Below the pieces are notes generated by a model. That model was not told the origin of the DNA. It worked only from the letters and a program-made list of their open reading frames with translations, and did not search any database. The translations under genes were made by a program, and so were the position numbers. A stretch of DNA of 64,000 bases from contig LCAH01000001.1 of the NCBI GenBank assembly GCA_000996355.1, forward strand, positions 85,958-149,957, read 5' to 3'. Of the stretch, positions 3,980 to 45,033 are shown piece by piece. Position 1 is the first letter of the stretch. Each line of letters opens with the position of its first letter. The stretch is from Candidatus Uhrbacteria bacterium GW2011_GWC2_41_11. GTDB lineage: Bacteria; Patescibacteriota; Patescibacteriia; UBA9934; GWF2-40-263.

Positions 3980-6205
3980 TTATTCTTCGTTTGTGGTTTT
4001 TTCAAAGTCACATTCTTTTGAAGAACATCGGACAGATCCTTTTGCCGCAAAAACAATGAGGCTGTTGCATTTGGGACATGTTTCACCTGTTGGTTTTTGC
4101 CAAAGGGCAAATGAACAAGCAGGATATTGATTACATCCGTAAAAGGTGCGTTTTTGACGCGTGCGTTTTTCAACAAGTTCACCTTTTTTGCATACGGGGC
4201 ATGTTATTCCAATTTTTGATTCAATATTTTTGATGGTTTTGCATTCTGGATATCGTGAGCAGGAGAGAAAAGGACCAAAACGTCCATGTTTGATCACCAT
4301 GGGTGCTTGGCAGGTTGGACAAATTTCATTTGTGGTTTCCACTTCCGGCGGAGCGCCTTCTCCTTGGTCTTTGAGTGGTTTGGTATTTTTACATGTTGGA
4401 TAGTTGCTGCATGCGAGAAATTTTCCAAACCGTCCGTGCTTAATGACCATGGGTGAGTTACATTTGTCGCAACTGATATCTGTTTTTACATCATCGGGTC
4501 TGGATCGAGCAACGGTTTTTTCTTTTTCCTCAAGAGTTTGATGGAAGGGTTCGTAGAATGCTCGAATGACCGGAACCCACGGGGTTTCTCCATCTGCAAC
4601 CGCATCAAGTTTCTGTTCCATGTTTGCGGTAAATGCGTAGTCGACGATGTTCGGAAAATGTTCAACAAGAAGATCGTTGACGGTTTTTGCAATGCCTCCT
4701 GGAAAAAGTTTTTTCTGCTCATCTCGTTCCACATATCCGCGATCAATAATCGTTGCAATAGTTGGCGCATAGGTGGATGGGCGTCCAATCCCGTATTCTT
4801 CCAAGGTTTTTACAAGGGTTGCATCTGAATAGCGTGGAGGCGGTTCCGTGACATGTTCTTTGGAATCCAGTTGAACGAGGGTGAGAATATCTTCGACGAT
4901 AAGATCCGGAAGCAATGTTTCTTTTTGTTTTTCCGCGTACACTTTTAAATATCCTTCAAAACGAATCATAGAACCAGCTGTTCGAAATGCATATGGAGTA
5001 TTGGTTGCAATATCAACCGTTGTGCTTTCGAATATCGCTTCTGGAAGCTGGGTTGCGACCGCACGTCGCCATACAAGATCATAAAGACGCCAGAGACGAC
5101 GATCAAGAACATTTTGTAACTGATCTGGATGACGACGAACATCTGTTGGACGAATAGCTTCATGTGCTTCCTGAGCGCCTTTGGATTTTGTTTTGTATCG
5201 GCGAGGTTCTGGAAGGGTGAATATGTCTTTAAAATTCTCACGGATAAACGTGGTTGTTTCTTGAAGAAAGAGATCAGAAAGATTTACCGAATCTGTACGC
5301 ATGTAGGTGATAAGAGCAACGGAACCTTCTCCGGGAATTTCAACTCCTTCATATAATTTTTGTGCGAGACGCATTGTGTCTTTAGCTGTGAGACCAAGTT
5401 TTGTGTTTGCGTCTTGTTGAAGAGTGGAAGTGGAAAACGGAGGGGGAGGAGAACGACGCACGGTTTTTTGAGAAATGTTGGAAATGCGATATGTTGCTCC
5501 GTTTAATGATTGAAGAATTTGATCGGCATTTTCTTTTGATTCAATAGCAAGTTTTTCAAGACGTGTTCCGTTTTTTGTGTGGAGCTTTGCTGGAAAGTTT
5601 TTTTCGTTTTTAGAAAGGAGTGCTTCTATGGTCCAATATTCTTGAGGTTTGAAGACTTCTCGTTCGCGTTCACGTTCAACAACCAAACGTACAGCCACAG
5701 ATTGAACACGGCCAGCGGATAATCCTTTTTGAATTTTTCGCCAAAGAAAAGGAGAGAGTTCGTATCCAACTAAACGATCAAGCACACGACGTGCTTGTTG
5801 AGCGTCGACGAGATGTTGGTCAAGTGGACGCGGGTTTTCTAAAGCATGTTCAATCGCTCGTTTGGTAATTTCGTGAAAGGTAATACGTTCGAGTTTTTCC
5901 GGAGGGACTTGCAAAATTTCAGCAAGATGCCAGGAAATAGCTTCTCCTTCACGGTCTTCGTCTGTTGCAAACAGAATTTTATCTGCTTTTTTTGCCGCTT
6001 CTTTGAGGGTTTTTACCTGTTTCAGTTTTTCCCTTGGAACAATATATTTTGGTTGAAATTCATGTTCGACATCTACACCTAACGCACTTTTTGGTAAATC
6101 GCGAACATGACCAAAAGAAGAAAGAACGGTATAACCTCTTCCGAGAAATTTTCCGATGGTTTTTGCTTTCGTCGGAGACTCGACGATGACAAGATGATGA
6201 GACAT
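3980..6205 (-). CDS. topA: DNA topoisomerase I
   Basis: TOPRIM N-terminus MSHHLVIVESPTKAKTIGKFLG...GHVRDLP; catalytic core; three C-terminal C4 zinc-ribbon motifs (CDKCNSPM...C..C, CPTCQ...C..C, CPVCKKG...C). Confidence 0.95.
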   Translation of the reverse strand: MSHHLVIVESPTKAKTIGKFLGRGYTVLSSFGHVRDLPKSALGVDVEHEFQPKYIVPREKLKQVKTLKEAAKKADKILFATDEDREGEAISWHLAEILQVPPEKLERITFHEITKRAIEHALENPRPLDQHLVDAQQARRVLDRLVGYELSPFLWRKIQKGLSAGRVQSVAVRLVVEREREREVFKPQEYWTIEALLSKNEKNFPAKLHTKNGTRLEKLAIESKENADQILQSLNGATYRISNISQKTVRRSPPPPFSTSTLQQDANTKLGLTAKDTMRLAQKLYEGVEIPGEGSVALITYMRTDSVNLSDLFLQETTTFIRENFKDIFTLPEPRRYKTKSKGAQEAHEAIRPTDVRRHPDQLQNVLDRRLWRLYDLVWRRAVATQLPEAIFESTTVDIATNTPYAFRTAGSMIRFEGYLKVYAEKQKETLLPDLIVEDILTLVQLDSKEHVTEPPPRYSDATLVKTLEEYGIGRPSTYAPTIATIIDRGYVERDEQKKLFPGGIAKTVNDLLVEHFPNIVDYAFTANMEQKLDAVADGETPWVPVIRAFYEPFHQTLEEKEKTVARSRPDDVKTDISCDKCNSPMVIKHGRFGKFLACSNYPTCKNTKPLKDQGEGAPPEVETTNEICPTCQAPMVIKHGRFGPFLSCSRYPECKTIKNIESKIGITCPVCKKGELVEKRTRQKRTFYGCNQYPACSFALWQKPTGETCPKCNSLIVFAAKGSVRCSSKECDFEKTTNEE

Positions 6206-6229
6206 GTAAGGTGATAATGAGGGAACAAA

Positions 6230-6262
6230 GAGAAAACGTCAAGAATAGAACTTCCGCGTTTG
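6230..6262 (-). promoter_or_regulatory. Candidate promoter for topA with a very short or no leader
   Basis: The minus strand reads TTGACG-17 nt-CATTAT, ending about 12 nt before the topA ATG. There is no obvious SD. Confidence 0.25.
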
Positions 6263-6296
6263 GCCTATTTCGTTGTCACAAGCTCCGTTCCTCGTT

Positions 6297-7400
6297 TTAT
6301 TTTACATAGAACATTCCGCCGACGTGAGTTGTTAATCCTTTTAATTCAAGCATGGAAACAGCTGCAGTGATCACGGATGTTGGTTCTCTGATTTGACGCG
6401 CAAGTTCATCAATGTGAATGGGTTGACTTGAAAGCAATGTGTAGATTTTTTCTTCCAATGGATCTGTCCATTGAATATCAACCGGAGGAACAGGCGTAGA
6501 AGAAATATCTTTTGGTGTTGCTCCAAGAACAGAAAGGATATCTTCTGGACAAGTGACAACATGGGCTCCTGTTTTAATAAGCTCGTTTGTCCCTGTAGAT
6601 AACGGATTATAAATGGATCCTGGAACCGCAAAGACGTCGCGGCCAATATCCAAAGCTGCTTTTGCCGTAATAAGAGATCCGGATGTGATGGCCGCCTCAA
6701 TAACAACAGTGCCTTGACAAAGACCAGCAATAATACGATTGCGTAAAGGGAAATGATGACTGAGTCCGGGAGTTCCAATGGGAAATTCAGAAAGAAGGGC
6801 TCCACCCGTTTCGAGAATTTTTTCTGCGAGTGCGCGATGTCCGGCTGGATAGATGCTGTTGGCATCCAATCCAGATCCAAGAACTGCAAGAGTCATCCCA
6901 CGGACATTGGAAACAGCCTGATGGGCAAGAGCATCAATGCCGTATGCCATGCCACTCACAATTACTGTTCCGTGTATCGCAAGATATTCTGCGAGTGTTT
7001 GAACCACACGGCGACCATATTCGGTCGGATGACGTGAGCCGACAAGTGCCACGCACAATGCATCTTTTGGAGGAAGCGTTCCGCGCAAAAAAAGAAGCGC
7101 AGGAGGATCGTAGAGATGGGTGAGATTTTGTGGATAAAAAGGATCTCCAAATACAACAACCGTCACGTTGTGGCGTTCAAGTTGCTCTTTTTCTTCTTCA
7201 GGATTGAATTGGTTTCGTTTAGAAAGAAACTCATCTGTGATTCGTTCATCGATTCCGGCCAACAGAAATTCTGTTCGATGAGCAGAGAATGCAGTCTCAA
7301 ATGAAGGAAATATTTTTCGAAGCATGCTGATTCGACGTGCTCCAAATTTTGGAAATCGGGCAAGGGCAAGAAGAAATCCCAGATCTCTGCCATCGATCAT
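6297..7400 (-). CDS. dprA: DNA processing protein DprA (Smf)
   Basis: Rossmann-like DprA core GSRHPTEYGRRVVQTLAEYLAIHGTVIVSGMAYGIDALAHQAV...GGALLSEFPIGT; N-terminal SAM-like and C-terminal winged-helix regions. Confidence 0.9.
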   Translation of the reverse strand: MIDGRDLGFLLALARFPKFGARRISMLRKIFPSFETAFSAHRTEFLLAGIDERITDEFLSKRNQFNPEEEKEQLERHNVTVVVFGDPFYPQNLTHLYDPPALLFLRGTLPPKDALCVALVGSRHPTEYGRRVVQTLAEYLAIHGTVIVSGMAYGIDALAHQAVSNVRGMTLAVLGSGLDANSIYPAGHRALAEKILETGGALLSEFPIGTPGLSHHFPLRNRIIAGLCQGTVVIEAAITSGSLITAKAALDIGRDVFAVPGSIYNPLSTGTNELIKTGAHVVTCPEDILSVLGATPKDISSTPVPPVDIQWTDPLEEKIYTLLSSQPIHIDELARQIREPTSVITAAVSMLELKGLTTHVGGMFYVK

Positions 7401-7407
7401 AAAAACA

Positions 7408-7941
7408 TCAGGATATTAAAAGTTCCTCGAGTCGTAAACAGGTCTGTTTCAAAATATCTGGTAACTGGTTTTGTTCTTCTGTATTCCATGTTCCCAGAAC
7501 CCATGCATCCAGAGGAATAGCTGATCGTTCTGGACGTCCAATACCTATGCGAAGTCGTTTGATCTCGTTTGTCTTTAACTGTTCTATAATAGACTTCATT
7601 CCATTATGGCCTCCGGAAGAACCGGATGAACGAAAACGAAGCAATCCAAATGGAAGATCTGCATCATCATAGACAACAAGAATATCTTTTGGATCAATAT
7701 GCCAGAATCCAGACGTTGCTGTCACAGCTTCTCCAGAACCATTCATGAATGTAGTCGGAAGAAGGACAATAATTTTTTCTTCTTGGATTCGACATTCAGC
7801 AACGTTTGCGGAAAAGGTTCGTTTTTCTTTGAAGATCCCTTCATGATTTTTTGCGAACTGTTCCGCAGCCAAAAATCCAATATTGTGACGTGTTTTTGCA
7901 TACGCTGAACCTGGATTTCCTAAACCAACAAGGAGTTTCAT
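7408..7941 (-). CDS. pth: Peptidyl-tRNA hydrolase
   Basis: MKLLVGLGNPGSAYAKTRHNIGF N-terminus; the catalytic His/Asp context is conserved. Confidence 0.93.
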   Translation of the reverse strand: MKLLVGLGNPGSAYAKTRHNIGFLAAEQFAKNHEGIFKEKRTFSANVAECRIQEEKIIVLLPTTFMNGSGEAVTATSGFWHIDPKDILVVYDDADLPFGLLRFRSSGSSGGHNGMKSIIEQLKTNEIKRLRIGIGRPERSAIPLDAWVLGTWNTEEQNQLPDILKQTCLRLEELLIS

Positions 7942-7949
7942 AAAGAGAA

Positions 7950-9314
7950 CTAGACCGCACGAACGGTTGGAAGGCGGGCAGATACTTTAATAGGTGTTCC
8001 GGAAAGAGGAAATGATTCATGTAAACGATTTTCCAAATAACGAAGATAGCTTGGGTGAATCACATCTGTTCGTTTTGCACGAATGGTGACCGCAAAGGTG
8101 GGTGGGGCCACACCAACCTGTTTGATTCCAAGAACTTTTGGCGGTTTTGGTCCTTTGCCTTTCATAGGAAGGCGTGCGCGAGTTGCTTTGATAAAAAAGG
8201 CTTCAAGTTCTTCAAGAGGAATTTCGGTAAAACGTGCTGTTTGAACTTCATCAATCAAATGAAAAAGTTCATCCACACGTTGGCCGGTTTTTGCAGAGGT
8301 AAAAAGGACAGGTGCCCAGGTAAGAAACGGGAGTGCATTTTTGATCGCCTCAGAAAATTTTCCAATTGTGGTTGGAGTTTTGTCTGGAATAAGATCCCAT
8401 TTGTTTGCAACGACAATGACACCAATTCCTGTTTCTTGAAGGAGACCGGCAAGAATACGGTCTTGAACTCCGAATGGCTCTGATGCATCTAATACGAGCA
8501 AAGCAATATCTGCACGTTTGATGGTTTCGACAGTTCGTTCAACACCTATTGCTTCCAATCCACCTGTTTTTCTGACTTTGCCGCGTTTTCGCATTCCGGC
8601 TGTATCAATAAAGAGATAATTTTTTTCTCCTACTTCAACAAGGGTATCAACAGGTTCTCGTGTCGTGTGAGCAATTGGACTCACAATAAATCGTTCTTCC
8701 TTGAGTAATTGGTTTAAAACCGAAGACTTTCCAACATTTGGTTTTCCAATAACAGCAACACGTACCGGAGAAATCTGACTTAATTCTGCGGGAGGAATTC
8801 CATGTTTTTCCAATGATTCATACACACGATCCAACATATCGCCAAGACCGGTGCCGCGTAAGGCAGAAATAGGAATAGGTGTAGGAAGACCTCCTAAACG
8901 CCATTCACCGGATTCAGCTGCAAGGATTTGAGCAGGGGATTCAGCTTTATTTCCAACTGTGATCACTGGTTTTTTTGAGCGGCGTAAACGTTCGGCAATT
9001 TTTCGTTCTTGTGGAAGGGGAACGCCTTTGAGATCAAGAACAAATAAAATAAGATCCGCTTGTTCGATCGCGCGTTCCGTTTGTTTCATGGCATCTTGTT
9101 CAAGATCTTCCGCGTGAGGAACATCAAGACCGGCTGTATCAACGATACGAATGATTCGTCCACGCCAAAGACAATCCGCCTCATGCCGATCACGTGTGGT
9201 TCCTGGAACACGGGAAACTAATGCTTTATTTTCTTCAGCCAGACGGTTAAATAGGGTAGATTTACCAACGTTCGTTCGGCCGATAATGGCGATGGTTGGA
9301 AGATGAGGGCGCAT
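7950..9314 (-). CDS. der: Ribosome-associated GTPase Der/EngA (two GTPase domains plus a KH-like domain)
   Basis: Two P-loops (IAIIGRTNVGKSTLFNRL and VAVIGKPNVGKSSVLNQL) and DTAG motifs. Start placed at the internal ATG (MRPHLPTIAIIG) at 9314, which avoids overlap with the upstream LCP gene. The longer track ORF would start at 9407. Confidence 0.88.
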   Translation of the reverse strand: MRPHLPTIAIIGRTNVGKSTLFNRLAEENKALVSRVPGTTRDRHEADCLWRGRIIRIVDTAGLDVPHAEDLEQDAMKQTERAIEQADLILFVLDLKGVPLPQERKIAERLRRSKKPVITVGNKAESPAQILAAESGEWRLGGLPTPIPISALRGTGLGDMLDRVYESLEKHGIPPAELSQISPVRVAVIGKPNVGKSSVLNQLLKEERFIVSPIAHTTREPVDTLVEVGEKNYLFIDTAGMRKRGKVRKTGGLEAIGVERTVETIKRADIALLVLDASEPFGVQDRILAGLLQETGIGVIVVANKWDLIPDKTPTTIGKFSEAIKNALPFLTWAPVLFTSAKTGQRVDELFHLIDEVQTARFTEIPLEELEAFFIKATRARLPMKGKGPKPPKVLGIKQVGVAPPTFAVTIRAKRTDVIHPSYLRYLENRLHESFPLSGTPIKVSARLPTVRAV

Positions 9315-9318
9315 GTTA

Positions 9319-10806
9319 TTAGGTGCGGACAAGTGAAGTACTTGTTTCGCCAAGAATAATAAGGAAATCAACATTTTTTTCCGTGGTTTTTGCTTCCGTA
9401 TTTTCATTGCTTACAGAAATTTCTTTTGGAACAATGCCTTTTGCAAACATCCATCCGGAAGCAGACATAGAAATATCCGCTTTTAAAAATTCTTGAAGAA
9501 TTTTTAATTCCTCGGTTCGTTGTCCGTCTGTGAGATCATAAATAACGGTGCGAGAATATTCGCGTTCAGCTGCGTTTCCAATTTTCACCACTTCAAATCC
9601 CTGACCTTCCAGAAGTTGAGCGGTGTAGGAAGCTAAGCCTTTTGTTCCTGTTCCATTCTGAATTTCTACACGAACAAAATGGGTTTGTTTTTCCGGAGCT
9701 TTTGCAAGAACATCTTCTTTCCAAGTGGTTGAATCAAAGACATGATCCGCAAGAAGACGAAGCGGTTCCCAGTCATCATTTTTTGGAAGAAGAACAAACC
9801 CAAGCCCTTCCAGAGAAGTCGGATAGATCGGACTGTCTGGAGATGTATCCAACACATGGTTCACGATATTGTTTGAGTCGTAGTTTCGCAAAAGTTTTGC
9901 TAAACGCACCATTTCCCATAGAGAAAGATTCGTCTGAACGTGACCTTCCAACATGGTGAAAATTCCATTGATTTTTCCTGGATTGAGCCAGGTGTTCAGA
10001 CGAAACGTTTTTTCCTTTACAGCCAGAAGAATTTTTTGCTGACGTCGGCTACGGGCGAAATCTGAGCCTTCCCCATTTGTTCCATGACGGGATCTGGTAT
10101 AAATGAGAGCAGTTTTTCCATCCATGGTTTGCCATCCTTCTTTAAAGGAGATTGTTTGAATAAGATCGTCTTCTGTTGGGTATTGCGAATCAACGAAGGA
10201 ATGTTCGACAAAAACATCAACACCTCCCAAGGTATCAATCAGTTCTTGAAAAGCGTCAAAGTCCACCTTGACATAATAATGGATGTTTTGTCCAAATAGA
10301 TTGCTTAAAACTTTGCCTGTTTCCGCTGCTCCGGTTCCTGGATCATCTTTTTCCGCAAGAGCGTTGACGGAGTTGATTTTTCGCCATCCATAGCCTGGAA
10401 CAGGGACAGTTAAGTCTCGAGGGATGGAAAACATTCCAACAGAAGTGTCTGACGGGCGTACGCTGCCAAAAATAATAGTGTCTGTAAGTTCAGGACCGTC
10501 ATGTCCAGCGCCTCCCACTCCGAGTAAGAGAAAATTGATACGGTCCCCTTCTTCTCCTTTTAAGAGTTTGTCATCTGTTTGAACAAGTTCGCGGAGCGTG
10601 GAGAAGAGGGAGAGACGGGGAAATGATCCGAGACGAGCCTCACCACTCGTGGCAACTTGGTGGGAAAAAATTCCTCCAAATGAAGCAATCACGATCGAAA
10701 CAATAACAAAAAGACGGCGGAAAAAAATAAATGGCCGCGTTCCATCTGTGTCCAGTCGATATTTTTTTCGCAAGAAATCAATCTTCAAATCATCCATACG
10801 AATCAT
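9319..10806 (-). CDS. LytR-CpsA-Psr (LCP) family cell-envelope polymer transferase with C-terminal LytR_C domain
   Basis: N-terminal TM segment; LCP core INFLLLGVGGAGHDGPELTDTIIFGSVRPSDTSVGMFSIPRDL...GYGWRKINSVNA; C-terminal LytR_C-like region. Confidence 0.8.
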   Translation of the reverse strand: MIRMDDLKIDFLRKKYRLDTDGTRPFIFFRRLFVIVSIVIASFGGIFSHQVATSGEARLGSFPRLSLFSTLRELVQTDDKLLKGEEGDRINFLLLGVGGAGHDGPELTDTIIFGSVRPSDTSVGMFSIPRDLTVPVPGYGWRKINSVNALAEKDDPGTGAAETGKVLSNLFGQNIHYYVKVDFDAFQELIDTLGGVDVFVEHSFVDSQYPTEDDLIQTISFKEGWQTMDGKTALIYTRSRHGTNGEGSDFARSRRQQKILLAVKEKTFRLNTWLNPGKINGIFTMLEGHVQTNLSLWEMVRLAKLLRNYDSNNIVNHVLDTSPDSPIYPTSLEGLGFVLLPKNDDWEPLRLLADHVFDSTTWKEDVLAKAPEKQTHFVRVEIQNGTGTKGLASYTAQLLEGQGFEVVKIGNAAEREYSRTVIYDLTDGQRTEELKILQEFLKADISMSASGWMFAKGIVPKEISVSNENTEAKTTEKNVDFLIILGETSTSLVRT

Positions 10807-10921
10807 TGAGTATTATAAGGAAGAAGAAGAGGAAAAACAAGAGGAGAGTAATAAAAAAAAGACGATGTTTAAAATAAAAACCCTTTGAAAGGAAAACATT
10901 CCTACAAAGGGTTGTGTCGAT

Positions 10922-12211
10922 TTACACAAGCGGGAAATTTTTTTTGAGAAACTCCCCGAATTGTTCGACGAATTCTTCGTCATACCAATCATCCCAGGTG
11001 TACTGGGAGAGTGGTTCTATTCCACTCCTATCAAGAAAGATTTGAACATTGTCCACCCACCAATCCTTGCTTGACGAACCTATGTTATCGTCAAGAAAGA
11101 TTCCGTGGACTTGCCTGGTACCGACAATGGCGAATCCACTTGGGTAGTTGTCACTGGCATAGAGGACACTTCCTCCGTACCCATGAATCTTCAGCGCTTT
11201 GACCCAATCTTTAAAGAGAGAGGATTCGGAATAGATAAAGAAATTATACGATTTCTTTGCCTTTGGTCCAGGTATAACTGTGACACCAAAGGCACCAAGC
11301 ACCGTTTCGTCTCTGACTTTTTCAATCAGAGGGACGTCGGCGTCTTTGTAACGCTGAATGCGCTGCGCGTCTTTTATGAGACCTTGTGCCTCAATGTCCA
11401 AACACACAAGGAATTCCAGTTTTATTCCATCCGCAGCGGCTTTTTCCCGCAGCTCTGCAATGACTTGTCGAGTCTTCTCAACTTCACCGCGTCGGATATA
11501 CGTGAAAATTTCGTCCGTTTTCCAAAGCGGGGAAGGAAAGACCTCCCCTTTTTTTTCAAGAAACTGAATGAGAGTTCCACTAATTGTCGGTGTATCAGTG
11601 GAAGAGACATCGATTTCTTGTGTCCCAATAGATTCGGAGACAAAGTCAAAGACAAGTCGACAAAGATATTGCCGATCGTCTGTTCTTTTTTTGTCGACCC
11701 CTCCGAAACGAGTCCATGTCTCTTTGACAAGGATTGTCCCGTCCGCTGTTGAGAGTTCGTAGCTCGCCTGTTGAGAAGTATCTTTTCGTATGCCCCATTG
11801 CATGGAGATAAGAAGTTCGTCGCCGAGGGTCATCCCGAGATTTATTCCCGCAGGTTTCGTCTGCGAAAGATAATCACCCAGGGTCAGACCGCGGTCTTTG
11901 GGTCTTACGATACGGAGCGGTGCGCCCGCGATTGCTTCCAGCAGTTTAATTCGCGGAAGCACGGCGTCCTTCAGGTAAATGTCGAGCTCGTCATCTTTGA
12001 GACTACGGATCGTGTCGTCGAACACATCCTTTCCATGATCTCTGCGGATGATCGCGAGGAACCGGCAACTCCTGGCTTCCTCATCGCTATAGTTTAGCGA
12101 CTGCGCCTTTTCAAATGCACCATTTGGACTCATTGTTCCTGCAATCTGCAGGAGTTCTTCATGAGTCAGTGCCAATCGTGATCGAACTTTCAAATCTTCT
12201 ATATCTCTCAT
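10922..12211 (-). CDS. Hypothetical protein (429 aa) in a GC-elevated segment at the 3' side of tRNA-Val; possibly horizontally acquired
   Basis: Long ORF with SD-like caggagg 6 nt upstream of the ATG. Local GC is about 50-52% by eye against about 40-42% in flanking genes. I recognise no domain (segments such as HGYGGSVLYASDNYPSGFAIVGTRQVHGIFLDDN match nothing I know). Confidence 0.6.
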   Translation of the reverse strand: MRDIEDLKVRSRLALTHEELLQIAGTMSPNGAFEKAQSLNYSDEEARSCRFLAIIRRDHGKDVFDDTIRSLKDDELDIYLKDAVLPRIKLLEAIAGAPLRIVRPKDRGLTLGDYLSQTKPAGINLGMTLGDELLISMQWGIRKDTSQQASYELSTADGTILVKETWTRFGGVDKKRTDDRQYLCRLVFDFVSESIGTQEIDVSSTDTPTISGTLIQFLEKKGEVFPSPLWKTDEIFTYIRRGEVEKTRQVIAELREKAAADGIKLEFLVCLDIEAQGLIKDAQRIQRYKDADVPLIEKVRDETVLGAFGVTVIPGPKAKKSYNFFIYSESSLFKDWVKALKIHGYGGSVLYASDNYPSGFAIVGTRQVHGIFLDDNIGSSSKDWWVDNVQIFLDRSGIEPLSQYTWDDWYDEEFVEQFGEFLKKNFPLV

Positions 12212-12348
12212 TTCATCCTCCTGTGGCGTGCCACGTAGCGTGCCTATTTTTCGGATTGCACTCCTTTTTAAGAGAAAGGAGGTTTTTACTTATCAGAATT
12301 TAAGTATTTTGTCAATTTTTGAAAACAAAAAACATCCTCATGATGTTC

Positions 12349-12425
12349 TGGTGGACGCACCTGGATTCGAACCAGGGACCTCTGCAATGTGAATGCAGCG
12401 CTCTAACCAACTGAGCTATGCGTCC
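12349..12425 (-). tRNA. tRNA-Val (anticodon CAC)
   Basis: Reverse complement folds as a cloverleaf: acceptor GGACGCA/TGCGTCC, D-arm GCTC-AGTTGGTTA-GAGC, anticodon stem CTGCA/TGCAG with loop TTCACAT (U33, CAC, A37), T-arm CCTGG-TTCGAAT-CCAGG, and an encoded CCA. Confidence 0.9.
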
Positions 12426-12540
12426 ATGTCTGGCAGAATAGCAAAGGTTTCTTTTCTCTTCAAGAGAGAGATTGAAGACTTGTCGTGATGTTTTTTTTCT
12501 GATATTGTGACCCTATCTTAAGCCTTTTTTCATAAGGATT

Positions 12541-13158
12541 ATGTCTTTTTTTCACGGATCAGATCATACGCCGGATCAGTTCTGGCATAGAAAATTCGGA
12601 CCCGTGGTTGGGGCGGGAATTCTTTTTGTGTTGGAGATTATCCAGATTTTGGTTTTTTCCGCAGCGATTATCATTCCCATCCGATATTTTCTTATCCAGC
12701 CTTTTTATGTAAAAGGAGCATCCATGGAGCCGAATTTTTATGATCACGAATATCTTCTTATTGATGAAATCAGTTATCGATTTCGTGAACCGAAACGGGG
12801 AGATATTATTGTATTCCGTTATCCGCGGAATCCTTCTGAATTCTTTATTAAACGTGTGGTTGGTTTACCAGGAGAAACCGTCGAAATTTTGGATGGAGTT
12901 GTTACGCTCTATAATAATGAACATCCAAATGGTATTCGACTCGAGGAATCTTATTTGTCCGGTGCCTATACGCCAGGTCGTATAAAATATGTGCTTGGTT
13001 CTGATGAATATATCGTATTGGGAGACAATCGTGATGCGAGTTTGGATTCGCGCGCATTTGGTCCTGTAAAACGAGATGAATTGGTTGGACGCGTTTGGAT
13101 ACGGGGACTTCCTCTCAATCGTGCGGGAATTTTTGAAACTCCAGAGTATCCGTTGTAA
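12541..13158 (+). CDS. lepB: Signal peptidase I
   Basis: N-terminal TM segment; catalytic Ser box GASMEPNF; Lys box KRVVGLPGE; GDNRDASLDSRAFGPV motif. Confidence 0.92.
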   Translation: MSFFHGSDHTPDQFWHRKFGPVVGAGILFVLEIIQILVFSAAIIIPIRYFLIQPFYVKGASMEPNFYDHEYLLIDEISYRFREPKRGDIIVFRYPRNPSEFFIKRVVGLPGETVEILDGVVTLYNNEHPNGIRLEESYLSGAYTPGRIKYVLGSDEYIVLGDNRDASLDSRAFGPVKRDELVGRVWIRGLPLNRAGIFETPEYPL

Positions 13159-15744: not shown

Positions 15745-15845
15745 CGATTGCGGGATGTTTTTATTTCTCTGGGCATGAGAAATGATTTCGTGTACAATAA
15801 AGAAAAATTGGCTGAGGTTTCATGTTGCAGAGAGGGAACCACAAT

Positions 15846-17699
15846 ATGCGTTTACGAAAGACCGCCATGGCTCTTGGCGTATTTGTGTTTGTGGGGATTT
15901 TGATGGTGTTAGGAACAAGAGATGTTTACGCACAAATAAACAGTGCAAGCGTGAATGCTGTCGGTTCTGCTTCCGGATTGTCTACGCAGGAATTAACGAT
16001 TCTTATTGCTCGTATCATTCGGGCAGCGCTTGGTGTTCTTGGAATTGTTTTCGTTGCACTGATTGTGTATGCCGGTTATTTGTACATGATTTCATCCGGC
16101 GATCCGGTGAAAACAGCGAATGCAAAAAAAATCATCAAAAGTGCTGCGATAGGTCTTGTCATTATTTTTGCTTCGTATTCCATTGCGAGTTATGTCCTTG
16201 GAAGATTATTAGCTGCGGCCGGACTCGCAGGAACAACGACAACAACAGCTGCACCATATTCAGAACCATTATCCGGTTCTCTTGGATCTGGAATGATTGA
16301 AAATCATTACCCAGGACGCAACGCTATTGATATTCCTCGCAATACTCGAATCATGATTACATTCAAGGAACCAATGAATCCTGATTCTTTTGTAAAGGAT
16401 GATGATAAGGATCCAGCGACAACCGATGATATGAATACAGATAATCTTTTGATCTATCCAACGGATTCTGTGAATGGATCTGAAGGAGTTGAAGCAAAAG
16501 ATGTTGCATTGGCGAGTACGGCTGTTGCGGTTAGTTATACGGAAGATCTTCGTACCTTTGTTTTTGATCCTATTGATTTGTTGGGGAATGCGCTTGAAGA
16601 TACAAATTATACCGTGAAAATACAGCCAGATAGTTTGAAAGCTGATGGAACAGCAGTGTTTTCCGGAGCCTATGCAGAAGGATATGAATGGAGTTTTGAA
16701 GTTTCAACCGAAGTAGACCTCACTCCTCCAAAAGTGGTCTCTGCCATTCCTGTCTCTTCAGACAATCCATACGATCGGAATGTGACGATTCAGATCACAT
16801 TTAATGAGGCTATGGATCCCGTTGCTGTATCCGGAACCTACGATCCGAATCAAGAAAAAACATTTTCTAATATCGAAATAGTAGCCACTCCTGAGGGAGA
16901 AACGAAAAATAACGTTTATGGATCTTTTCTTATAAGTAATGGATACAAGACCGTAGAATTTACCTCGTTTGATGCATGCAGCAAGGATCCTTGCGGAGAT
17001 ACCATTTATTGTCTGCCAGCGCTTGCAAATATCGAAGTACAAGCACATGCAGCAGGTTTGAGTACCGATCCGCCTCAAGCTTCCATGATAGGTGGTTTGT
17101 TTGATGGACTAGCTGATGCGGCAGGAAATTCTCTTGATGGAGATGGAGATGGAACTGCAGAAGGTCCTGGGGTAAGTTTAGATGATTATCAATGGAATTT
17201 TCAGACATCAGACGCTATTAATGATGATGTTCCAGAAATTATTTCTTTGTCTCCGGGAATTCGAGAAGAAAATGTGGATTTGAACACACAGGTGAAAGTG
17301 ACGTTTAATATGCTTATGCAGTCATCTTCATTAAATAGTGATGCGATTCGTCTTATTCCAGATCAGGTACAGGAACTTTGGTATACTCTTTCGCAGATGT
17401 CTTTAAATAGCAACTTTCAACCAGCAAATGTAGAAGAAAACCCTGTTTATACCCAGGCAATGGTGGATCATGCTTCTTTTTGGGAGAGTGATGAAACACA
17501 GGGAATTTTTTATAATTACTATCCTGTCATTTCGAATGATGTAAAGAGCGTCTATCAGATTTGTATGTATCCATCATACGGACCGTCCAATAGTGAAAGT
17601 TTTTCCTCGTGTGCAACCACATTGCAACCGTATTGTTGTGATGGACTTCCTTCAAATAAGGCGTGTACAACAAATAAGGGAACAACCCTCGGTGATTAG
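15846..17699 (+). CDS. Secreted/surface protein (~617 aa): signal peptide, TrbC/VirB2-like pilin module, then an ectodomain
   Basis: Start set at the ATG with gagggaacc 8 nt upstream; the track ORF begins at 15822. Has a signal peptide, then LTILIARIIRAALGVLGIVFVALIVYAGYLYMISSGDPVKTANAKKIIKSAAIGLVIIFASYSIASYV (two TM helices flanking a short loop), then a Thr-rich linker and about 480 aa with no TM. Confidence 0.75.
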   Translation: MRLRKTAMALGVFVFVGILMVLGTRDVYAQINSASVNAVGSASGLSTQELTILIARIIRAALGVLGIVFVALIVYAGYLYMISSGDPVKTANAKKIIKSAAIGLVIIFASYSIASYVLGRLLAAAGLAGTTTTTAAPYSEPLSGSLGSGMIENHYPGRNAIDIPRNTRIMITFKEPMNPDSFVKDDDKDPATTDDMNTDNLLIYPTDSVNGSEGVEAKDVALASTAVAVSYTEDLRTFVFDPIDLLGNALEDTNYTVKIQPDSLKADGTAVFSGAYAEGYEWSFEVSTEVDLTPPKVVSAIPVSSDNPYDRNVTIQITFNEAMDPVAVSGTYDPNQEKTFSNIEIVATPEGETKNNVYGSFLISNGYKTVEFTSFDACSKDPCGDTIYCLPALANIEVQAHAAGLSTDPPQASMIGGLFDGLADAAGNSLDGDGDGTAEGPGVSLDDYQWNFQTSDAINDDVPEIISLSPGIREENVDLNTQVKVTFNMLMQSSSLNSDAIRLIPDQVQELWYTLSQMSLNSNFQPANVEENPVYTQAMVDHASFWESDETQGIFYNYYPVISNDVKSVYQICMYPSYGPSNSESFSSCATTLQPYCCDGLPSNKACTTNKGTTLGD

Positions 17700-17708
17700 T
17701 CACAACAC

Positions 17709-20700
17709 ATGAAAACACGTTTTTTCTTCATTTCTTGTTTCGTCATTCTTTTTTGGGGCATATCGGCTCAATGGTTTGATATTCCTCCGGCTTTGGCTCA
17801 AGCGATTCAAACAAATGAGGCATTTGGCGGAGTAGCCCCAGAGAGTTTTGCAGAAACAGCCGGATTAGCTGGAGGAGATATCACTCTTATTATTGCTCGG
17901 TTGATTCGAGTAGTTCTTGGAACGCTTGGGGTTGTAGCTGTGGCATTTGTTTTGTATGGCGGATTTTTGTGGATGACCTCGAGAGGGGAAGATCTAAAGA
18001 TAAAGAAAGCAAAGATGATCATGACAAATGCATTGATTGGTTTGATCATTGTTTTGTCATCGTTTGCTATTGCTCAATTTGTGATCAGTCGACTGTCTTC
18101 TGCAACAGGAGCAGGAACGACAACAGAAGGAACAGAAAAAACAACGTATAATGATGTGTTAGATGCGAGTGCAACTTTTGTTTTGCGTTCTGTGAATACA
18201 GAATGTGCTTCCGCGATTCGCAACCTTGAACTTCAATTTATTTTTAGTCAGAACGTTTCTGTTTCCACAGTGAATGATAGTGGAATTGTTGTTTCTCGTG
18301 CGGATGGAGATCCGGTTTCTGGTTCTTTTGAAACATCGGGAAGTCGTGTGACGTTTATTCCATCTGCAACATGCACAACTTCAGACGGAATTGAGGTTCA
18401 TTGCTTTGATGCAGAAACAGTTTATGAAGTGAATCTGAGTTCTGCTGTTTTGAAGAGTAGTTCCGGTCGTACGCTTGAATGTTCTGAAACATATCCCTGT
18501 CACCAAACATTTACGACTGGGTCTGGTTTCGATACGAAAAAACCAGATATCCAGATGACAAGTCCAGATGATGGCGGTTCAGCATATAGTGGCACAGCAG
18601 AACTTCTTCAGGCACTTACTTCTGATGATTCAGGTGTTTCTTCTCTTGAATTTTCTTTGGATGGAGATGCTGTGGATGTGGCTGGTCTCGATGAGAGTTC
18701 AGCTCTCGCCCTTGCCATGGAAAATATTTTTTATGGGGAGTGGGATACCGTTGGGTATGTCACAAATAAAATGTATCATTTTTCTGCGGAGGGATTTGAC
18801 TGCGGGGGAAATAGTGATACGTCTTCAGAAATCGATGTTGTTTTACGCGCTCCGAATTGTAACAATGATATACAGGATGCAGAAGATCCTTATTTTGAAG
18901 ACGGAGTTGACTGCGGAGGAAATCAATCAGATGAATATTATTGCGGAGCGTGTAATGGGTCCTCTTGTATAGAAAATTCTGATTGTGCTTCAGGGAGTTG
19001 TGCAGAAAACATTTGTGTCTATTCAGCTGAAATAGAAGCCATTTTTCCTGGAGACGGTGCTCCTGGAAACTTGATGACAATTTCTGGAAACGGATTTGGA
19101 AATACGCAAGGTACGATTCTTTTTCTTGGAAGTATTGATGATGATACAGATGATGTTTCTGTTGGTCCTTATACTGCTTGTGACGGAACATGGACCGATA
19201 ATCAAATTGTCATTCAACTTGATGAAAAAATGGTAAGTGGACCGGTCGAGCTCGTGACCTCGGATGGATTTCGAGATAGAACCGATGATGAAAATGGTCC
19301 ATTGATCAGCGATTTTGAAGTGAATACAACCGTACGTCCCGGGCTTTGTCGTGTGGATCCAGAGAAGGCGTCTGGAAAAGATACAGTCACGGTTCAGGGA
19401 AATAATTTTGGAGACAATCAAGGATCTTCAGTTTTGTATTTTGATACATCAACCGCTTCGAGTTATCCATCTTGGGCGTCAAATAGTTTGAAAGCGGTTG
19501 TTCCTCTTCTTGACACTGGCTCGTATGACCTCCAGTTATTTGGAGGGAATGGAGATACGCGAGAGGGTTCAAACAAGTTGATATTTAACATCAATTCAAC
19601 CTCATCAAGTTCGGAACCGCCAGTTATTAGCGATGTGGATACAGGAGTGAAGCGTTGTGAAGATGAAAAAGGTTTCATTTGTACAGATGATGCAGATTGT
19701 GTGGCTGGTATTCCTTGTGCAGAAGATAAAAATGCCGGTCCGATCAGTCAATATGTGACGATTTACGGTTCGCATTTTGGAACAACTCCTGGAACCGTAC
19801 GTTTTCGAAACCAAGATCTTGATCTTGTCGCTCTTGCAGATACAAATTTTCCAGACAGTTGTGGAGAGGATTTCTGGGACAATGACAGTATTCTTGTGAA
19901 AGTTCCGAAAATATATGATTTATCTGATGGACATGCACTGAATGTTGGTTTGCATGATCTTTGGGTTGTTCGAGGAGAAGATGGAACTGTTTCTGATCCT
20001 GTGGATTTTGAAGTGATTGAAGGAAAAGCTGGACCAAGTATTTGTGCGGTAGAACCAGACGCAGGTCCTCCAGGGACAGATGTTTCATTTTTTGGTGAAG
20101 AATTTGGGAGTGATAAAGGATCTGTTATTTTTTACGAAAATCAAAAAGTTTCTCCAGGGGCATGGTCTGATGAACAGATCTCTGGAACCATTCAAAATCC
20201 CCTTCAAGTTCCAACTCAAGCAAAAACAGGTCCAGTAAAAATTCAGGCAGATGATGGACAATATTCGAATTCTGTTTCCTTTGAAGTCGGAATGTGTGAC
20301 GTTGATTTTTCTTGTGGAAGCGGACAGGAGTGTTGTGCGGATGGAGCATGTCGAATTGAGGAAACATGTAAGGAATCTATTCCTGTTTCCCATTACGCAT
20401 ACTTTTTTTCCACAGGAGACATTCCGGAAGCTCCGGAAGTGATTATTGAATGTAGTGATACGTATATTTCTCCAACTCCATGGGAATTTTGGGAAGGAGG
20501 AACAGATGTTTGTTTGACCGCAGCCGTTGCTGCATCTTTTTCCGAACCCATGGATACAAAAACATTTACTTCTTCAACTATTTCCGTTGAAAAGTGTCTT
20601 TTAGCGAATTGTGATTCAACAACTGCTGTGGAGATGTCTCCAAAAGGAAATCCAACAAGCATGGCCGAAACATCTTTTTTCTGGGAACCAGCTCAGGATT

Positions 20701-23700
20701 TTGAGCCTGAAACACGTTATCGTATAACTGTGAAAGGTGGAGAGAATGGCGTGAAGAGTGTACAAGGAGTTGCTATGGAAAAGGATTCGCAGTGGGAATT
20801 TGTTACAGCTCCTTCTGGAAATGAATGTACGATTGGCGGAGTGTATTTGACGCCTGCAAAATTTACCGCAACAGAAAAAGAACAACGTGTTCAATATACT
20901 GTTGCGCCTATTTCAGATGAATATCAGTGTCTTCTTTTAAGTTGTACAAATCATCAATGGACATACAATAGCAGTGATCCTTCAAAGGCAGATTTTGCCG
21001 AATTTGAAAATGCTTGTTCTTTGAAAGTGGCTGTTCATAAGGAAACAAACCCTGGGGTTCCTGTGGTGATTACTTCCTGGTTGTATGATAATGGAAATTT
21101 GGGTCCAAATGATACCGCAGATTTGACAATCAATTTTACGGATCCAAAAATTATTGACTTCTGGCCTGGTTGTGATTCCGTTTGTTTAAATGCTTCTGTT
21201 TCAGCTGTCTTTAATATTGACATGAAAGATGAATTTTCTGGATTTGAAATAGGGGGAGATCACATGGTTCGTCTGTATGAATGTGAAGATCCTGGGTGTA
21301 CATCAGATGAATTAACAGAAGTCAATGATCGTTCTGTTACATATGATTTGGAAACATTCACTGTTACCATTCGTTCGAATACGGATTTGAAGACGGATAC
21401 TTCTTATCGAGTAGTTTTTTCAGGGGAATTAACATCGACCAGTGATGTTTCTCTTTCGAAATCTGCTTCTGATCTCGCCTACGGAGACGATTTTTCGTGG
21501 ATTTTTACAACAAAAGATGAAGCGTGTGCAGTCAATCGTGTGGAGGTTACTCCTGAACAAGTGACCCTTACTATTATTGGCGAACGTCAAACATTTCAAG
21601 CAACGCCGTATAGTGCTCCAGATGATTGTTCGGAAAACGGTCAGGCATTAAACGGAGATCATTATCAATGGTCTGCTTGGACCGCGGAAGATGTGGAAAA
21701 TAACGTGGAAGACGCAGATGTCGTTCAGCTCATGGTAGATGGAAAAATTCGTGTAAGCGAAACATTTCCAGCTTACTGTTCAAGTTCTTCTTGCAATACC
21801 ATTGGATCGAATACCCCGGTGGCTATTTGCGGAAATAACACGGTTCATTGTACGACCGATGCAAATTGTGTTGCGTATGGAGCAGACGCAACTTGCAATG
21901 ATTTTGGTCAATGTGTGGAACCGGGGGAAGATTGTGATGACGGAAATGTCACGGAAAATGACGGTTGTTCTTCTATTTGTCTGACAGAAGGAGTGACAGC
22001 ATGTGTATCTTTGACAGACGTTGGTTGTTGTGGGAACGGAGTGCGTGAAGGACGGGAGGAATGTGATGATAAAAACACAAAAAATGGAGACGGATGCTCA
22101 AGTGTTTGTTTAAATGAGGGAGCAAAGGCTTTGAAATATGATTGTGGAGATGGAAAAGTGGCACAAAGTGCATCAACAGGAGGAGAAGAATGTGATTGGA
22201 AAGAGGAAAATGATGTGTATGGTTGTTCTTCCAATTGTTTGAATGTTGGTTCGATTTCCAAAGAAGATCTTTATGCAATTTGTGGAAATGGGGCGCAGGA
22301 AAACGGAGAAGATTGTGATGATAAAAACACAAAAAATGGAGACGGATGTTCGTCTACTTGCCAAAATGAGGGTTCTTCGTCTTCCTATAGTTCTGTCTGC
22401 GGAAACAATAAAATAACCTGCCATAAAAATGTAGATTGTAGTTCATATGGAAGTGGAACACAGTGCAATGTATTAGGGCAATGTGTGCAAACAGGAGAGG
22501 ATTGTGATGATGGAAATATAGAGGACGGAGATGGGTGTTCTTTTAACTGTCTGTTTGAGGGTTCGAGTGTGGAATATACAAATCCGTCTATTTGCACGGA
22601 CGGAACAATTGGAACAGGTGAAGCATGTGATGCGGAAGAAGTAGGAACAGTGATTGCCGGTTTTGGAGTGGCAGAAATAACCACAGATGCTCCGGAAGAG
22701 GTTACAATAAGCGGAACAGGAACAGCATCTTCAACCGTGACAGCTACAGAAGGAACAAGTGGAGTGACTGGTTTCGCGACAGTGACACTGGAATGTTCTT
22801 GTACGTCTGATGTTTCGTGTGGGGATGCTGAGGTATATGGATGTGGAGACGCGAATTGTTGTTTTGAACGTCCGCATATTCTTCTTCCAACGACTCCAGC
22901 AAATGGAAAAACAGATGTCTGTCGCAACACAGCAGTAGCTGTTGATTTTGATCAAATCATGGATGAAACGTCTTTTAAACAGACGATTGGTGAAGGAGAA
23001 AATCAAACCGTGGAATTAAACATGTATCTAGAACTCACGGCTGTGAATGGAACAAAAATAACAGATGCAAATGCTACAACTCTTTGTCCAGCAAGTTATC
23101 ATAAGGAAGTTGCATTTGCAGATGAATTATCCAATCCACTTGTTCGAATCTGGGATTGGCTTGTTCGCGGAGTGGCAAAATTGTTCAATCATGTTTATGC
23201 AGCAGAAATATCTTGTCAGCTAGCTGTTTCATATTCCATAGAAAAAACAGATACCGGTTCCAAAGTCTATGTAAACTATGGAGAAGCTCTTCAAGCGAAC
23301 GGAACGTATCGTTTGATTGTGATGGGTGATTCGGATGATTTAGATGGAAAATCAGATGGAGTGAAAAGTACATATGGTGTTGCTCTTTTGGAAGACATAT
23401 CAACAACATTCACGGTAGGAAATGAAATTTGTGCATTGGAAGCAGTTCAAGTGACAGATGAAGGAAAAGAAATTGTGACTGAATTTGATGATGCAAGTTC
23501 CGGATTTTTTAGCGAACAAGGAGAACAACACACCCTGACAACAACCGCTTTTACTCTTCATGGTGCAAATCAGGAAGAAATTCAGGAGATTGCCGGTGTA
23601 TATGATTGGAATTGGTCTTGGGATTCGACATCTTCAGATACTGAGGCAGATAATGCTGTCTCTGTGACAAAAGCGGACACAACACAAACAACAGCTGTTG

Positions 23701-40121: not shown

Positions 40122-40199
40122 GGATCGGTGGTGTAGCCCGGTTAACACGTCTCCCTGTCACGGAGAAGATCGAGGGTTCGAATCCCTTCCGGTCCGCCA
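40122..40199 (+). tRNA. tRNA-Asp (anticodon GTC)
   Basis: Acceptor GGATCGG/CCGGTCC; D-arm GTGT-AGCCCGGTTA-ACAC; anticodon stem TCTCC/GGAGA with loop CTGTCAC (U33, GUC, A37); T-arm GAGGG-TTCGAAT-CCCTT; discriminator G; encoded CCA. Confidence 0.9.
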
Positions 40200-40392: not shown

Positions 40393-41541
40393 CTACAGAC
40401 TTTTGAGCAATGAAGATTCAAAGGTCCGAACAACCTTTTGGTCTTTTGCGAAACGCTCCTCTGCTAATTGGATGAGTTTTTGAATGAGATCGACATTCGA
40501 TACGCCAGAAGCTTTCCAATTATGGTGGTAGAGGCTGCCGGGGAGTGTATTTACCTCATTCACGAATACCTGATTCGTCTTCGAGTCGATCAAAAAGTCA
40601 ACGCGAGCAATACCGGTACAGCCCAAAACTTTGTACACCGCTTTACCAAGCTTCAAGACTTCCTTGGAGAGATCTGGAGGGATGTTTGCAGGTATCTCGC
40701 TATAGTTATTATTCACGCCCGAATCAGATCCTTTCTTGCCACCCGACAGATATTTATCTTCAAAGTTGAAAAACTCAGTCTTGTTGAGTGGGCGTTCGAT
40801 GGAAGCTGGCGTCAATATATCGTTACCCATGATTGGAAGCGTGACTTCAATAAGATTCTCAACGCTTTCTTCGACGAGCACTTTATTATCATAGTGAGAT
40901 GCGACTTCGAGCGCTTGCTCTAATTCTGACCGATCCTTAACTTTTGTGATCGCAATAGAGGAGCCGAGATGTACGGGCTTCACGAAGAGAGGCCATTGTA
41001 GCACGCTGGCACGCTCTATAAAGCCCTTTCTATCCTTCTCCCAGACATTTTGTGTGAGCCACTCGTAACGCACAACTGGTAAACCAGCCGCAGACACCAC
41101 TTGCTTTGTTAAAACTTTGTCCATCGCAACTGCAGAAGCGGCCATGTCGCAGCCTACGAAAGGTACATTCGCCATGCGAAGAATACCCATCAAGCTTCCA
41201 TCTTCTCCATATGTGCCGTGCATAGCGGGAAAGACCAGATCAATGTCGATCTTTTTTGAAACCATTCCAGAGAGGACAATAGAAAATTTCTCCCCAATAG
41301 AAAGTTGGAGTGGCTTCAGCTTTGTGAACTTGTCTTGAATATCGCCCTTAAAATAGTCCATGTAGTTCATCTGCTTTTCTGAATACCAGAGCCCTTCTTT
41401 TGTAATGTAGATTGGAATTACCTCGTACTCATCTAATGTGAGAAGTGTGTCGATAATTGGAGTATGAGCGGTGATGATTGAAACATCATGCTCCGCGCTT
41501 TTTCCGCCAAAAATGACGGCAATTGTTTTTTTGTTCTTCAT
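40393..41541 (-). CDS. ddl: D-alanine--D-alanine ligase
   Basis: IAVIFGGKSAEHDVSI; VFPAMHGTYGEDGSLMGIL; ATP-grasp region ARVDFLID...VNEVNTLPG. Start set at the internal ATG (MKNKKTIAVIFGG), just downstream of the MurF-like stop. Confidence 0.9.
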   Translation of the reverse strand: MKNKKTIAVIFGGKSAEHDVSIITAHTPIIDTLLTLDEYEVIPIYITKEGLWYSEKQMNYMDYFKGDIQDKFTKLKPLQLSIGEKFSIVLSGMVSKKIDIDLVFPAMHGTYGEDGSLMGILRMANVPFVGCDMAASAVAMDKVLTKQVVSAAGLPVVRYEWLTQNVWEKDRKGFIERASVLQWPLFVKPVHLGSSIAITKVKDRSELEQALEVASHYDNKVLVEESVENLIEVTLPIMGNDILTPASIERPLNKTEFFNFEDKYLSGGKKGSDSGVNNNYSEIPANIPPDLSKEVLKLGKAVYKVLGCTGIARVDFLIDSKTNQVFVNEVNTLPGSLYHHNWKASGVSNVDLIQKLIQLAEERFAKDQKVVRTFESSLLKSL

Positions 41542-41551
41542 AGTTTTGTTA

Positions 41552-43725: not shown

Positions 43726-43765
43726 GTAAGCGGTCTTGATGACGACATGTGGTGACCATCAAGTT

Positions 43766-44545: not shown

Positions 44546-44634
44546 ATAATAGCGTTAGGAGTTTCTTTGTAGAAATAAATCAGACGATTTCGTTATAATA
44601 CTAGAAAAACTACTGTATTTAGTGAGAAAAGTCA

Positions 44635-45010: not shown

Positions 45011-45033
45011 AGCGACCCACGTGGTCGTTTTTA
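45011..45033 (+). terminator. Short GC hairpin plus T-run inside a 555-bp noncoding stretch
   Basis: gcgacc-cacgt-ggtcg followed by ttttt; no annotated plus-strand gene upstream of it. Confidence 0.3.

Follow-up and report, generated by a model that had tools for sequence, protein, structure and literature searches.

Autogenous translational repression through an operator adjacent to the Shine-Dalgarno (SD) sequence is known from ribosomal-protein operons, ThrRS, and phage T4 RegA and gene 32. To our knowledge, little is known about the movement and control of accessory genes in the tiny genomes of the Candidate Phyla Radiation (CPR), in which about half of the genes are orphans. Here, we analyzed an open reading frame (ORF) of 429 amino acids (ORF429) in a 64-kb stretch of DNA from Candidatus Uhrbacteria bacterium GW2011_GWC2_41_11 (hereafter, the window). 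ORF429 lies beside a tRNA-Val(CAC) gene, and an initial annotation had described it as a GC-rich orphan inserted at the 3' side of this tRNA. We found that it is an independent transcription unit, that it encodes a member of a rare and modular protein family, and that it carries just upstream of its SD a tandem repeat that strictly co-occurs with the core genes of the family. Our preferred explanation, held tentatively and at a little short of an even chance, is that ORF429 was acquired horizontally as a self-contained cassette of one gene, whose translational operator is read by the gene's own product.

The tandem repeat of ORF429 represents a family-wide motif, GGCACGCY-N4-5-GGCACGCC, which is 20 nucleotides (nt) long and consists of two units of 12 to 13 nt. 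This motif was found once, on the strand of the gene, at all eight independent core-family loci (the window, L001 to L005, L019, and L080). It is the sole invariant block in an alignment of the eight leaders (alignment A10), even though the proteins have diverged to about 33% identity. The copy upstream of ORF429 is the single match in the window, where none is expected from 100 shuffles, and the motif is absent from five relatives that lack the gene. Besides, the distance from the end of the motif to the start codon is 13 to 17 nt at all eight loci, whereas the distance to the -10 element varies from 43 to 125 nt, indicating that the motif is anchored to the ribosome-binding site (RBS) and not to the promoter. 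A conserved cis-element, a fixed distance from the RBS, and co-occurrence with the gene at eight of eight loci are the features of an SD-proximal operator.

The hairpin predicted for the motif was inconsistent between the loci, and the fold in the window differed from the others; a stable RNA hairpin was thus dropped as an explanation. Together with the lack of variation in the motif, this inconsistency points to sequence-specific recognition. An upstream ORF was also dropped, since an in-frame ATG is present only in L005 and L080 and none in L001 to L004; L019 has an ATG, the frame of which was not checked. In L005 (565-589), the database start of the protein P0002 falls inside the motif, and the family alignment and the SD place the true start at ATG 589, eight codons downstream. 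A scan of viral sequences returned at least 57 matches to the motif, mostly in GC-rich contigs and none beside a family gene, and we judged these matches to be due to chance. Literature searches on the motif and on islands of Patescibacteria found nothing relevant. The 3' end of a tRNA-Asp in the window, GGTCCGCCA (40190-40199), matches the repeat unit GGCACGCCA at seven of nine positions; a mimicry of tRNA acceptor ends by the repeat in the leader is speculation.

The SD, the promoter-like site, and a strong intrinsic terminator right behind the stop codon (Table 1) make ORF429 an independent transcription unit with a leader of about 70 nt. Of the two upstream signals reported in the initial annotation, the good SD was confirmed, and the promoter was confirmed in part: both of its elements are in place, but the -10 element agrees with TATAAT at only two of six positions, and a consensus scan does not call it. 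The promoter is nevertheless plausible, because TTGAC(A/T)-18-TATAAT occupies the corresponding site in homologous cassettes. In one subgroup (L001 to L004 and L019; the subgroup of P0003 to P0006), comparison of the noncoding flanks revealed joint conservation of promoter, leader, and terminator. The subgroup promoter is TTGAC(A/T)-17/18, with the -10 element TATAAT in L002 and L003 and TACCAT in L004; the leader is about 140 nt long, and the terminator is AGAGAGC-CTGACCA-GCTCTCT-T(n). These leaders are 75 to 87% identical, compared with 52 to 73% for the coding DNA and 45 to 66% for the proteins. Two hairpins in the subgroup leader, P1 and P2, are 97% paired versus 34 to 49% in slid controls, with five compensatory pairs, and they are not kept in the window, L005, or L080. 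A search of Rfam gave no match to the leader and detected only the tRNA.

Table 1. Coordinates of the features of ORF429 and its surroundings in the window
Feature	Position	Strand	Remarks
Intrinsic terminator, nested hairpin followed by UUUUUAUUUU	10871..10913	-	dG -17.9 kcal/mol, z -5.3; none of 200 shuffles equally stable
Whole ORF	10922..12211	-	429 aa; identical to UU48_C0001G0112
C-terminal alpha/beta domain, residues 304-429	10925..11302	-	Conserved GYGGS, T-G-Q, and C-terminal FPL (alignments A1 and A3)
Central region, residues 72-303	11303..11998	-	Predicted long helix, five-strand beta-meander, and helical bundle (AlphaFold2); no fold match
N-module, residues 2-71	11999..12208	-	Five predicted helices; search hits confined to residues 2-72, HMM mapping, alignment A5
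Shine-Dalgarno AGGAGG	12217..12222	-	5 nt before ATG
Tandem direct repeat GGCACGCT-ACGT-GGCACGCC	12225..12244	-	Ends 13 nt before ATG
Leader hairpin CTCCTTT-CTCTTAA-AAAGGAG	12261..12281	-	Position of hairpin P2 of other cassettes (alignment A10)
Promoter-like TTGACA-17-TAAGTA	12287..12315	-	-35 perfect; -10 weak, preceded by TG
Weak terminator-like hairpin and T-run after tRNA	12322..12346	-	dG -6.4 kcal/mol, z -0.98
tRNA-Val(CAC)	12349..12425	-	ARAGORN; Rfam tRNA 73.7 bits

We further investigated the protein family with HMMER, which yielded 67 hits when 1.84 billion representatives were searched exhaustively. About 20 of these are full-length or nearly so and are 24 to 40% identical to ORF429, about 40 are restricted to residues 2 to 72 (the N-module), and some cover the C-terminal domain only, which stands alone in P0025, P0031, P0032, and P0061. 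Thus, the family is rare and modular, and its sources, where named, are Patescibacteria. Further profile searches for homologues gained almost nothing, and a metagenome scan gave one extra locus. The family genes were found in a variety of contexts, i.e., between UvrC and Ddl, between a methyltransferase and an exonuclease-like gene, between aldolase-side genes and PfkB, beside transfer-messenger RNA (tmRNA) and SmpB, or beside GlmS, and no conserved partner gene travels with them.

Conservation within the protein is highest in the N-module, whose motif is SP..A....A....A.SCRFLAIIRRD(H/Y)G. This module occurs alone in proteins of 68 to 101 aa, in tandem, and N-terminal to several unrelated orphan bodies of 200 to 580 aa. 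Once, in P0040, the N-module is C-terminal, behind a receiver-like region with a DD, D, T, K signature; this region is weakly supported (Pfam E 0.0057; NarL alignment E 0.72), and the matches cover the DD and LLD motifs. In NarL-type regulators, a helix-turn-helix (HTH) output domain sits after the receiver, and the N-module of P0040 may take the place of this HTH, which is a weak analogy of position and not a demonstrated homology. Searches of Pfam and PDB with the N-module profile gave nothing consistent, with one Nif11 hit among 40 members and Doa1 noise.

Several features were observed around other members of the family. L003 (255-4287) contains a reverse-transcriptase gene (RVT_1) and a 142-aa ORF upstream of the family gene; on the downstream side, the 3' end of a tmRNA lies 250 nt from the cassette, with SmpB adjoining. 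In L004, a near-perfect, GC-rich palindrome of 56 nt occurs on both sides of the cassette (45-100 and 1781-1836) in a contig of 41% GC, and its two copies could be either repetitive extragenic palindromic (REP)-like elements of the host or boundaries of the cassette. L078 (1-1185) and L079 (1-610) each carry a stand-alone N-module gene (81 to 82 aa) followed by a gene with HTH/Myb-like repeats. Their leader begins with GTTCTTTGATAA, like the cassettes of P0003 to P0006, and the RBS of their second gene, ACAGGAGGAATTGAAATG, is similar to ACAGGAGGATGAAATG of the window. A relationship between the downstream gene of L078 and the body of ORF429 was considered and dropped, the two being unrelated. 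L081 (6001-7698; 565 aa) and L083 (403-2013; 536 aa) are solitary N-module genes between housekeeping genes, with consensus-like promoters and with GC contents at third codon positions (GC3) of 0.52 versus about 0.33 and 0.68 versus 0.35, respectively. Several N-module genes have in common a "GTTCTTTGA(T/A)AA" box close to the start of transcription; the GTTCTTTGA-like box also has background matches, nine of them in the window, and is a lead only. The distant member P0037 is located near an AbiEii gene.

The remote-homology check proposed in the initial annotation was carried out with profiles and with AlphaFold2 plus Foldseek, and it assigned ORF429 neither to a known family nor to a housekeeping enzyme. 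Neither ORF429 alone nor the 22-member family matched Pfam, NCBIfam, PHROGs, PADLOC, or PDB sequences; Pfam gave no hit in any of the 22 members, and PADLOC-DB 2.0 gave 0 families at E<=10 for ORF429. The best score against curated families was that of Bac_rhamnosid (E 0.0052), which is below the curated cutoff. A tblastn search of 50,697 phage and 72,556 plasmid records gave no match to ORF429, and no relatives were found in IMG/VR, INPHARED, and BFVD. A protein identical to ORF429 is on record as UU48_C0001G0112, a "hypothetical protein" of Candidatus Uhrbacteria bacterium GW2011_GWF2_41_16. The contigs encoding this protein are 100% identical in DNA at the locus; the population is therefore clonal, and selection is not readable from them.

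Judging from the structural models, ORF429 is a real protein. The full-length AlphaFold2 model was fair (predicted local distance difference test [pLDDT] score, 80.6), and that of residues 1 to 303 was confident (pLDDT, 90.3; predicted template modeling score [pTM], 0.83). The predicted layout comprises helices (1-95), a five-strand beta-meander (99-168), helices (180-300), and an alpha/beta domain (308-425). Accordingly, the fold proposed in the initial annotation, a helical N-terminal part and a C-terminal alpha/beta region, was roughly right, and the beta-meander is an addition to it. For the first 300 residues, Foldseek returned nothing credible from PDB or BFVD (best PDB E 0.26). The C-terminal domain appeared loosely CheY-like, with KdpE, Spo0F, and CheY receivers as matches (E 0.017 to 0.6; target-normalized TM score of about 0.5), and in the model it may loosely be called a flavodoxin-like alpha/beta domain. 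The family proteins are acidic and have no membrane segment. Invariant polar residues are few across the family (E92, C49, R255, and Y345), which argues against a classical enzyme; judging from sequence conservation, sensing or binding seems more likely than catalysis for the rest of the protein.

ORF429, on the minus strand with an ATG start, sits in the divergent intergenic junction between lepB and an LCP (LytR_cpsA_psr) gene. The single 429-aa frame, the LCP gene as its neighbor, and the position of the tRNA-Val(CAC) had been reported in the initial annotation, and all of them were reproduced here: LCP is downstream of ORF429, and ARAGORN and Rfam placed the tRNA on the minus strand as well, and its 3' end points toward the start of ORF429 from 137 nt upstream. 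LCP is followed by Der, Pth, DprA, and TopA; LepB, HisRS, S21, and YqeY lie on the other side, and RelA/SpoT is also among the neighbors within about 10 kb. Elsewhere in the window (15822-27965), a giant protein of 3418 aa with TIG/Big_5 repeats comes after a 625-aa ORF (617 aa in database records) that contains a T4SS-pilin-like domain.

Related genomes were gathered via the adjacent LCP protein, and their neighboring genes were placed by tblastn. In L014, L015, and L016 (LCP, 45 to 49% identical), the order hisS(-) lepB(-) / LCP(+) der pth dprA is kept, with lepB-LCP gaps of 80, 170, and 490 bp, respectively, and an ORF429-type gene was not found at this junction. The gap of L016 holds a tRNA-Val(CAC) in the orientation opposite to that in the window. 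In L018, two copies of tRNA-Val(CAC) are present at the same junction, again inverted relative to the window. These copies (6021-9907) have an identical 21-nt 5' leader and bracket 3.7 kb directly upstream of LCP, which contains an MNT-type nucleotidyltransferase gene and two unknown ORFs. The empty junctions and the contents of L018 together indicate that the junction is a variable spot. Relative to these relatives, ORF429 is an insertion at a variable spot, and it is specific to its species among the genomes sampled. Both observations that would have spoken for an ancestral or a housekeeping gene, i.e., orthologs at the same locus and homology to a housekeeping enzyme, were looked for, and neither was obtained.

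The base composition of ORF429 is also foreign. Its GC content is 47.1%, compared with 41.6% for the window, and only 1.4% of 1290-nt windows have a GC content as high; the deviation noted in the initial annotation is real, but the estimate of 50 to 52% GC was too high. The GC3 of ORF429 is 0.474; the median is 0.306 (robust z 3.1; rank 3 of 43 genes), and 36 core genes have a value of 0.293±0.041 (z 4.5). Only genes of a second block exceed this value. This second foreign-looking, tRNA-adjacent block (40393-46475) comes after tRNA-Asp (40122-40199) and contains six genes with GC3 values of 0.39 to 0.49, encoding Ddl, a Mur ligase, an alpha/beta hydrolase, and three unknown proteins; it is followed by a very AT-rich gene (GC, 0.32) at 46912-48273. 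At other loci, the family genes are mostly richer in GC3 than their neighbors: 0.715 versus 0.30 in L004, 0.633 versus 0.26 to 0.56 in L003, and 0.645 versus 0.47 to 0.56 in L080. The view of ORF429 as an inserted accessory gene of foreign composition therefore stands, in that three relatives lack the gene and the family occurs in unrelated contexts elsewhere.

Based on these results, we propose that a cassette consisting of promoter, leader, ORF (for a soluble, acidic protein of three parts), and intrinsic terminator landed in the lepB/LCP junction of this Uhrbacteria lineage, and that the gene and its control element would travel together between hosts of differing composition. Since no second gene co-travels, the factor that reads the motif should be either universal or the cassette's own product. 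In our preferred explanation, the repeat would be a translational operator: the product would bind it on the mRNA and occlude the SD, and such autogenous feedback could work in any host that the cassette enters. The presumed target of the product, or of its N-module, would be RNA or DNA carrying GGCACGCTACGTGGCACGCC. The N-module is the most plausible binder, given that no other part is as well conserved, that other proteins reuse it as a module, and that it occupies the HTH-equivalent place in P0040; the remaining domains may carry the accessory activity, which would be binding or sensing rather than classical catalysis. The insertion, the foreign composition, the anatomy of the transcription unit, the rarity and modularity of the family, and the co-occurrence and RBS anchoring of the motif are results of the analysis; the identity of the binder, the level (RNA or DNA) at which it acts, and the cellular role of the protein are inferred.

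Several observations weigh against this explanation. The most divergent member, P0037 (L020), is without the tandem motif, as are the N-module genes of L078, L079, L081, and L083, so that either the specificity of the N-module differs between subfamilies or another domain is the binder. Besides, the protein is acidic (pI 5.1), the N-module is near neutral, and nucleic-acid binding is presumptive. Furthermore, the relatives used for synteny are distant (LCP, 43 to 53% identical) and do not fix the timing of the insertion. In a wider version, the N-module proteins, ORF429 among them, would form a Patescibacteria-specific pool of self-regulating one-gene cassettes that move between genomes whole, from promoter and operator-bearing leader to gene and terminator; their fold would be new, and so would be a nucleic-acid-binding module recognizing the GGCACGCC tandem repeat. 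We regard this version as unlikely.

Other explanations take the motif or the gene differently. The leader might be a host- or ligand-dependent RNA element (riboswitch-like, a ribosome standby site, or a translational enhancer) that is not bound by the product. In that case, a metabolite or the ribosome would exert the control, and the protein would be an ordinary accessory enzyme or a binding protein. The structured subgroup leader with its covarying hairpins and the anchoring of the motif to the SD are consistent with such an element, and the portability would follow equally well from a partner that is universal, for example a common metabolite or the ribosome. However, only the 20-nt repeat is conserved family-wide, which is too little for a typical aptamer; P1 and P2 are gone in the window, L005, and L080; Rfam has no match; and the unvarying repeat offers no covariation for an RNA helix. 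We consider this explanation rather unlikely. A selfish mobile gene, i.e., a free-standing homing gene or a small recombinase whose protein would cut or recombine DNA with the flanks or the tandem repeat as recognition sites, would also account for solitary insertions at many unrelated intergenic sites, the foreign GC content, the conserved noncoding ends, and the palindromes around the L004 copy. Nevertheless, it is very unlikely in view of the searches of Pfam, NCBIfam, PHROGs, and predicted folds, in which no nuclease, recombinase, or transposase domain was found, and of the very few invariant polar residues. The conserved flanks, moreover, stop at the promoter and the terminator without terminal repeats common to the loci, and copies with 45 to 66% protein identity are diverged and not recent.

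The remaining alternatives concern the junction. The initial annotation had raised a role in defense, and a single-gene anti-phage defense or other conflict system in a tRNA-adjacent island, which would be compatible with the one-gene cassette, could be suspected from a sporadic, solitary, and horizontally moved gene at a variable spot, from the MNT-type nucleotidyltransferase at the same junction in L018, and from the AbiEii gene near P0037. With 0 hits in PADLOC, no effector-type domain, no conserved partner genes, and housekeeping genes as neighbors at the other loci, the suggestion found no backing, and we regard it as decidedly unlikely. Integration targeted to the tRNA fared no better. 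The insert does lie on the 3' side of a tRNA and is missing from relatives, as is typical of a tRNA-targeted island, and a remnant of an integrase island at the 3' end of tRNA-Val, with integrase and att site since lost, would fit this geometry, the proximity of the L003 cassette to the tmRNA 3' end, and the 3.7 kb bracketed by duplicated tRNA-Val copies in L018. Against this, there is no integrase gene within about 10 kb of ORF429 and no tRNA-derived (attL/attR-like) repeat in 10500-12700, the orientation of the tRNA is reversed in L016 and L018, and most other family loci have no adjacent tRNA; such a remnant is highly improbable. Thus, the tRNA-Val marks a variable junction, and its role as an integration site is not supported. 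Finally, ORF429 might be ancestral and lost in the sampled relatives, with its GC3 reflecting an expression-linked codon bias. The relatives are distant enough (LCP, 43 to 53% identical) for repeated loss, and the promoter and SD look strong; but three relatives have an intact lepB/LCP junction without the gene, the family is scattered in unrelated contexts, and the other high-GC3 genes of the window (Ddl, Mur ligase, and hydrolase beside a tRNA) are not classic highly expressed genes, which leaves ancestry with a slim chance indeed.

Returning to the cassette with its own operator, the ORF429 family provides a testable handle, with a confident predicted structure, no known relatives, and an invariant 20-nt cis-element. 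Binding of the element by the product would define a new module for nucleic-acid binding, together with an autoregulatory design that is portable; without such binding, the element would be a new leader motif that is read by something universal. If the idea of a pool of cassettes is true, the CPR would harbor portable, autoregulated elements of a class not described before, be they accessory, selfish, or defense elements.

As a category, a horizontally acquired accessory cassette is ordinary; what the libraries and literature searched do not describe is the protein family, its modular N-terminal domain, and the invariant repeat that travels with the gene. Like phage morons, ORF429 has a promoter-like site, one ORF, a strong terminator, and a GC3 above that of the host, and it is located between conserved genes. 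Unlike morons, it is flanked by housekeeping genes and not in a prophage, has no match in IMG/VR, INPHARED, or BFVD, carries a conserved leader motif, and encodes a protein that matches no known family. With tRNA- and tmRNA-adjacent islands it shares the position on the 3' side of a tRNA and a junction that varies between relatives, whereas it consists of one gene only and lacks both an integrase and an att duplication. The C-terminal portion of about 125 residues gives a loose Foldseek similarity to CheY-like receivers (PF00072), but it has no Pfam hit, opens with a beta-hairpin and not with beta-alpha, and shows no conserved acidic pocket or phospho-acceptor Asp after beta1 or beta3 (alignment A3). 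Direct repeats just upstream of a solitary protein gene are reminiscent of type III toxin-antitoxin systems. The repeat units of ToxIN are about 34 to 36 nt, whereas the ORF429 transcript has only two units of 12 to 13 nt and no terminator between repeats and gene, and PADLOC gave 0 hits. With regard to the autogenous repression systems, the element of ORF429 differs in being a tandem direct repeat and not a known operator hairpin, the protein is without a known RNA-binding domain, and binding by the product is presumed from the arrangement; as in those systems, however, the gene is accompanied by a short and invariant cis-element at a distance of 13 to 17 nt from its start codon.

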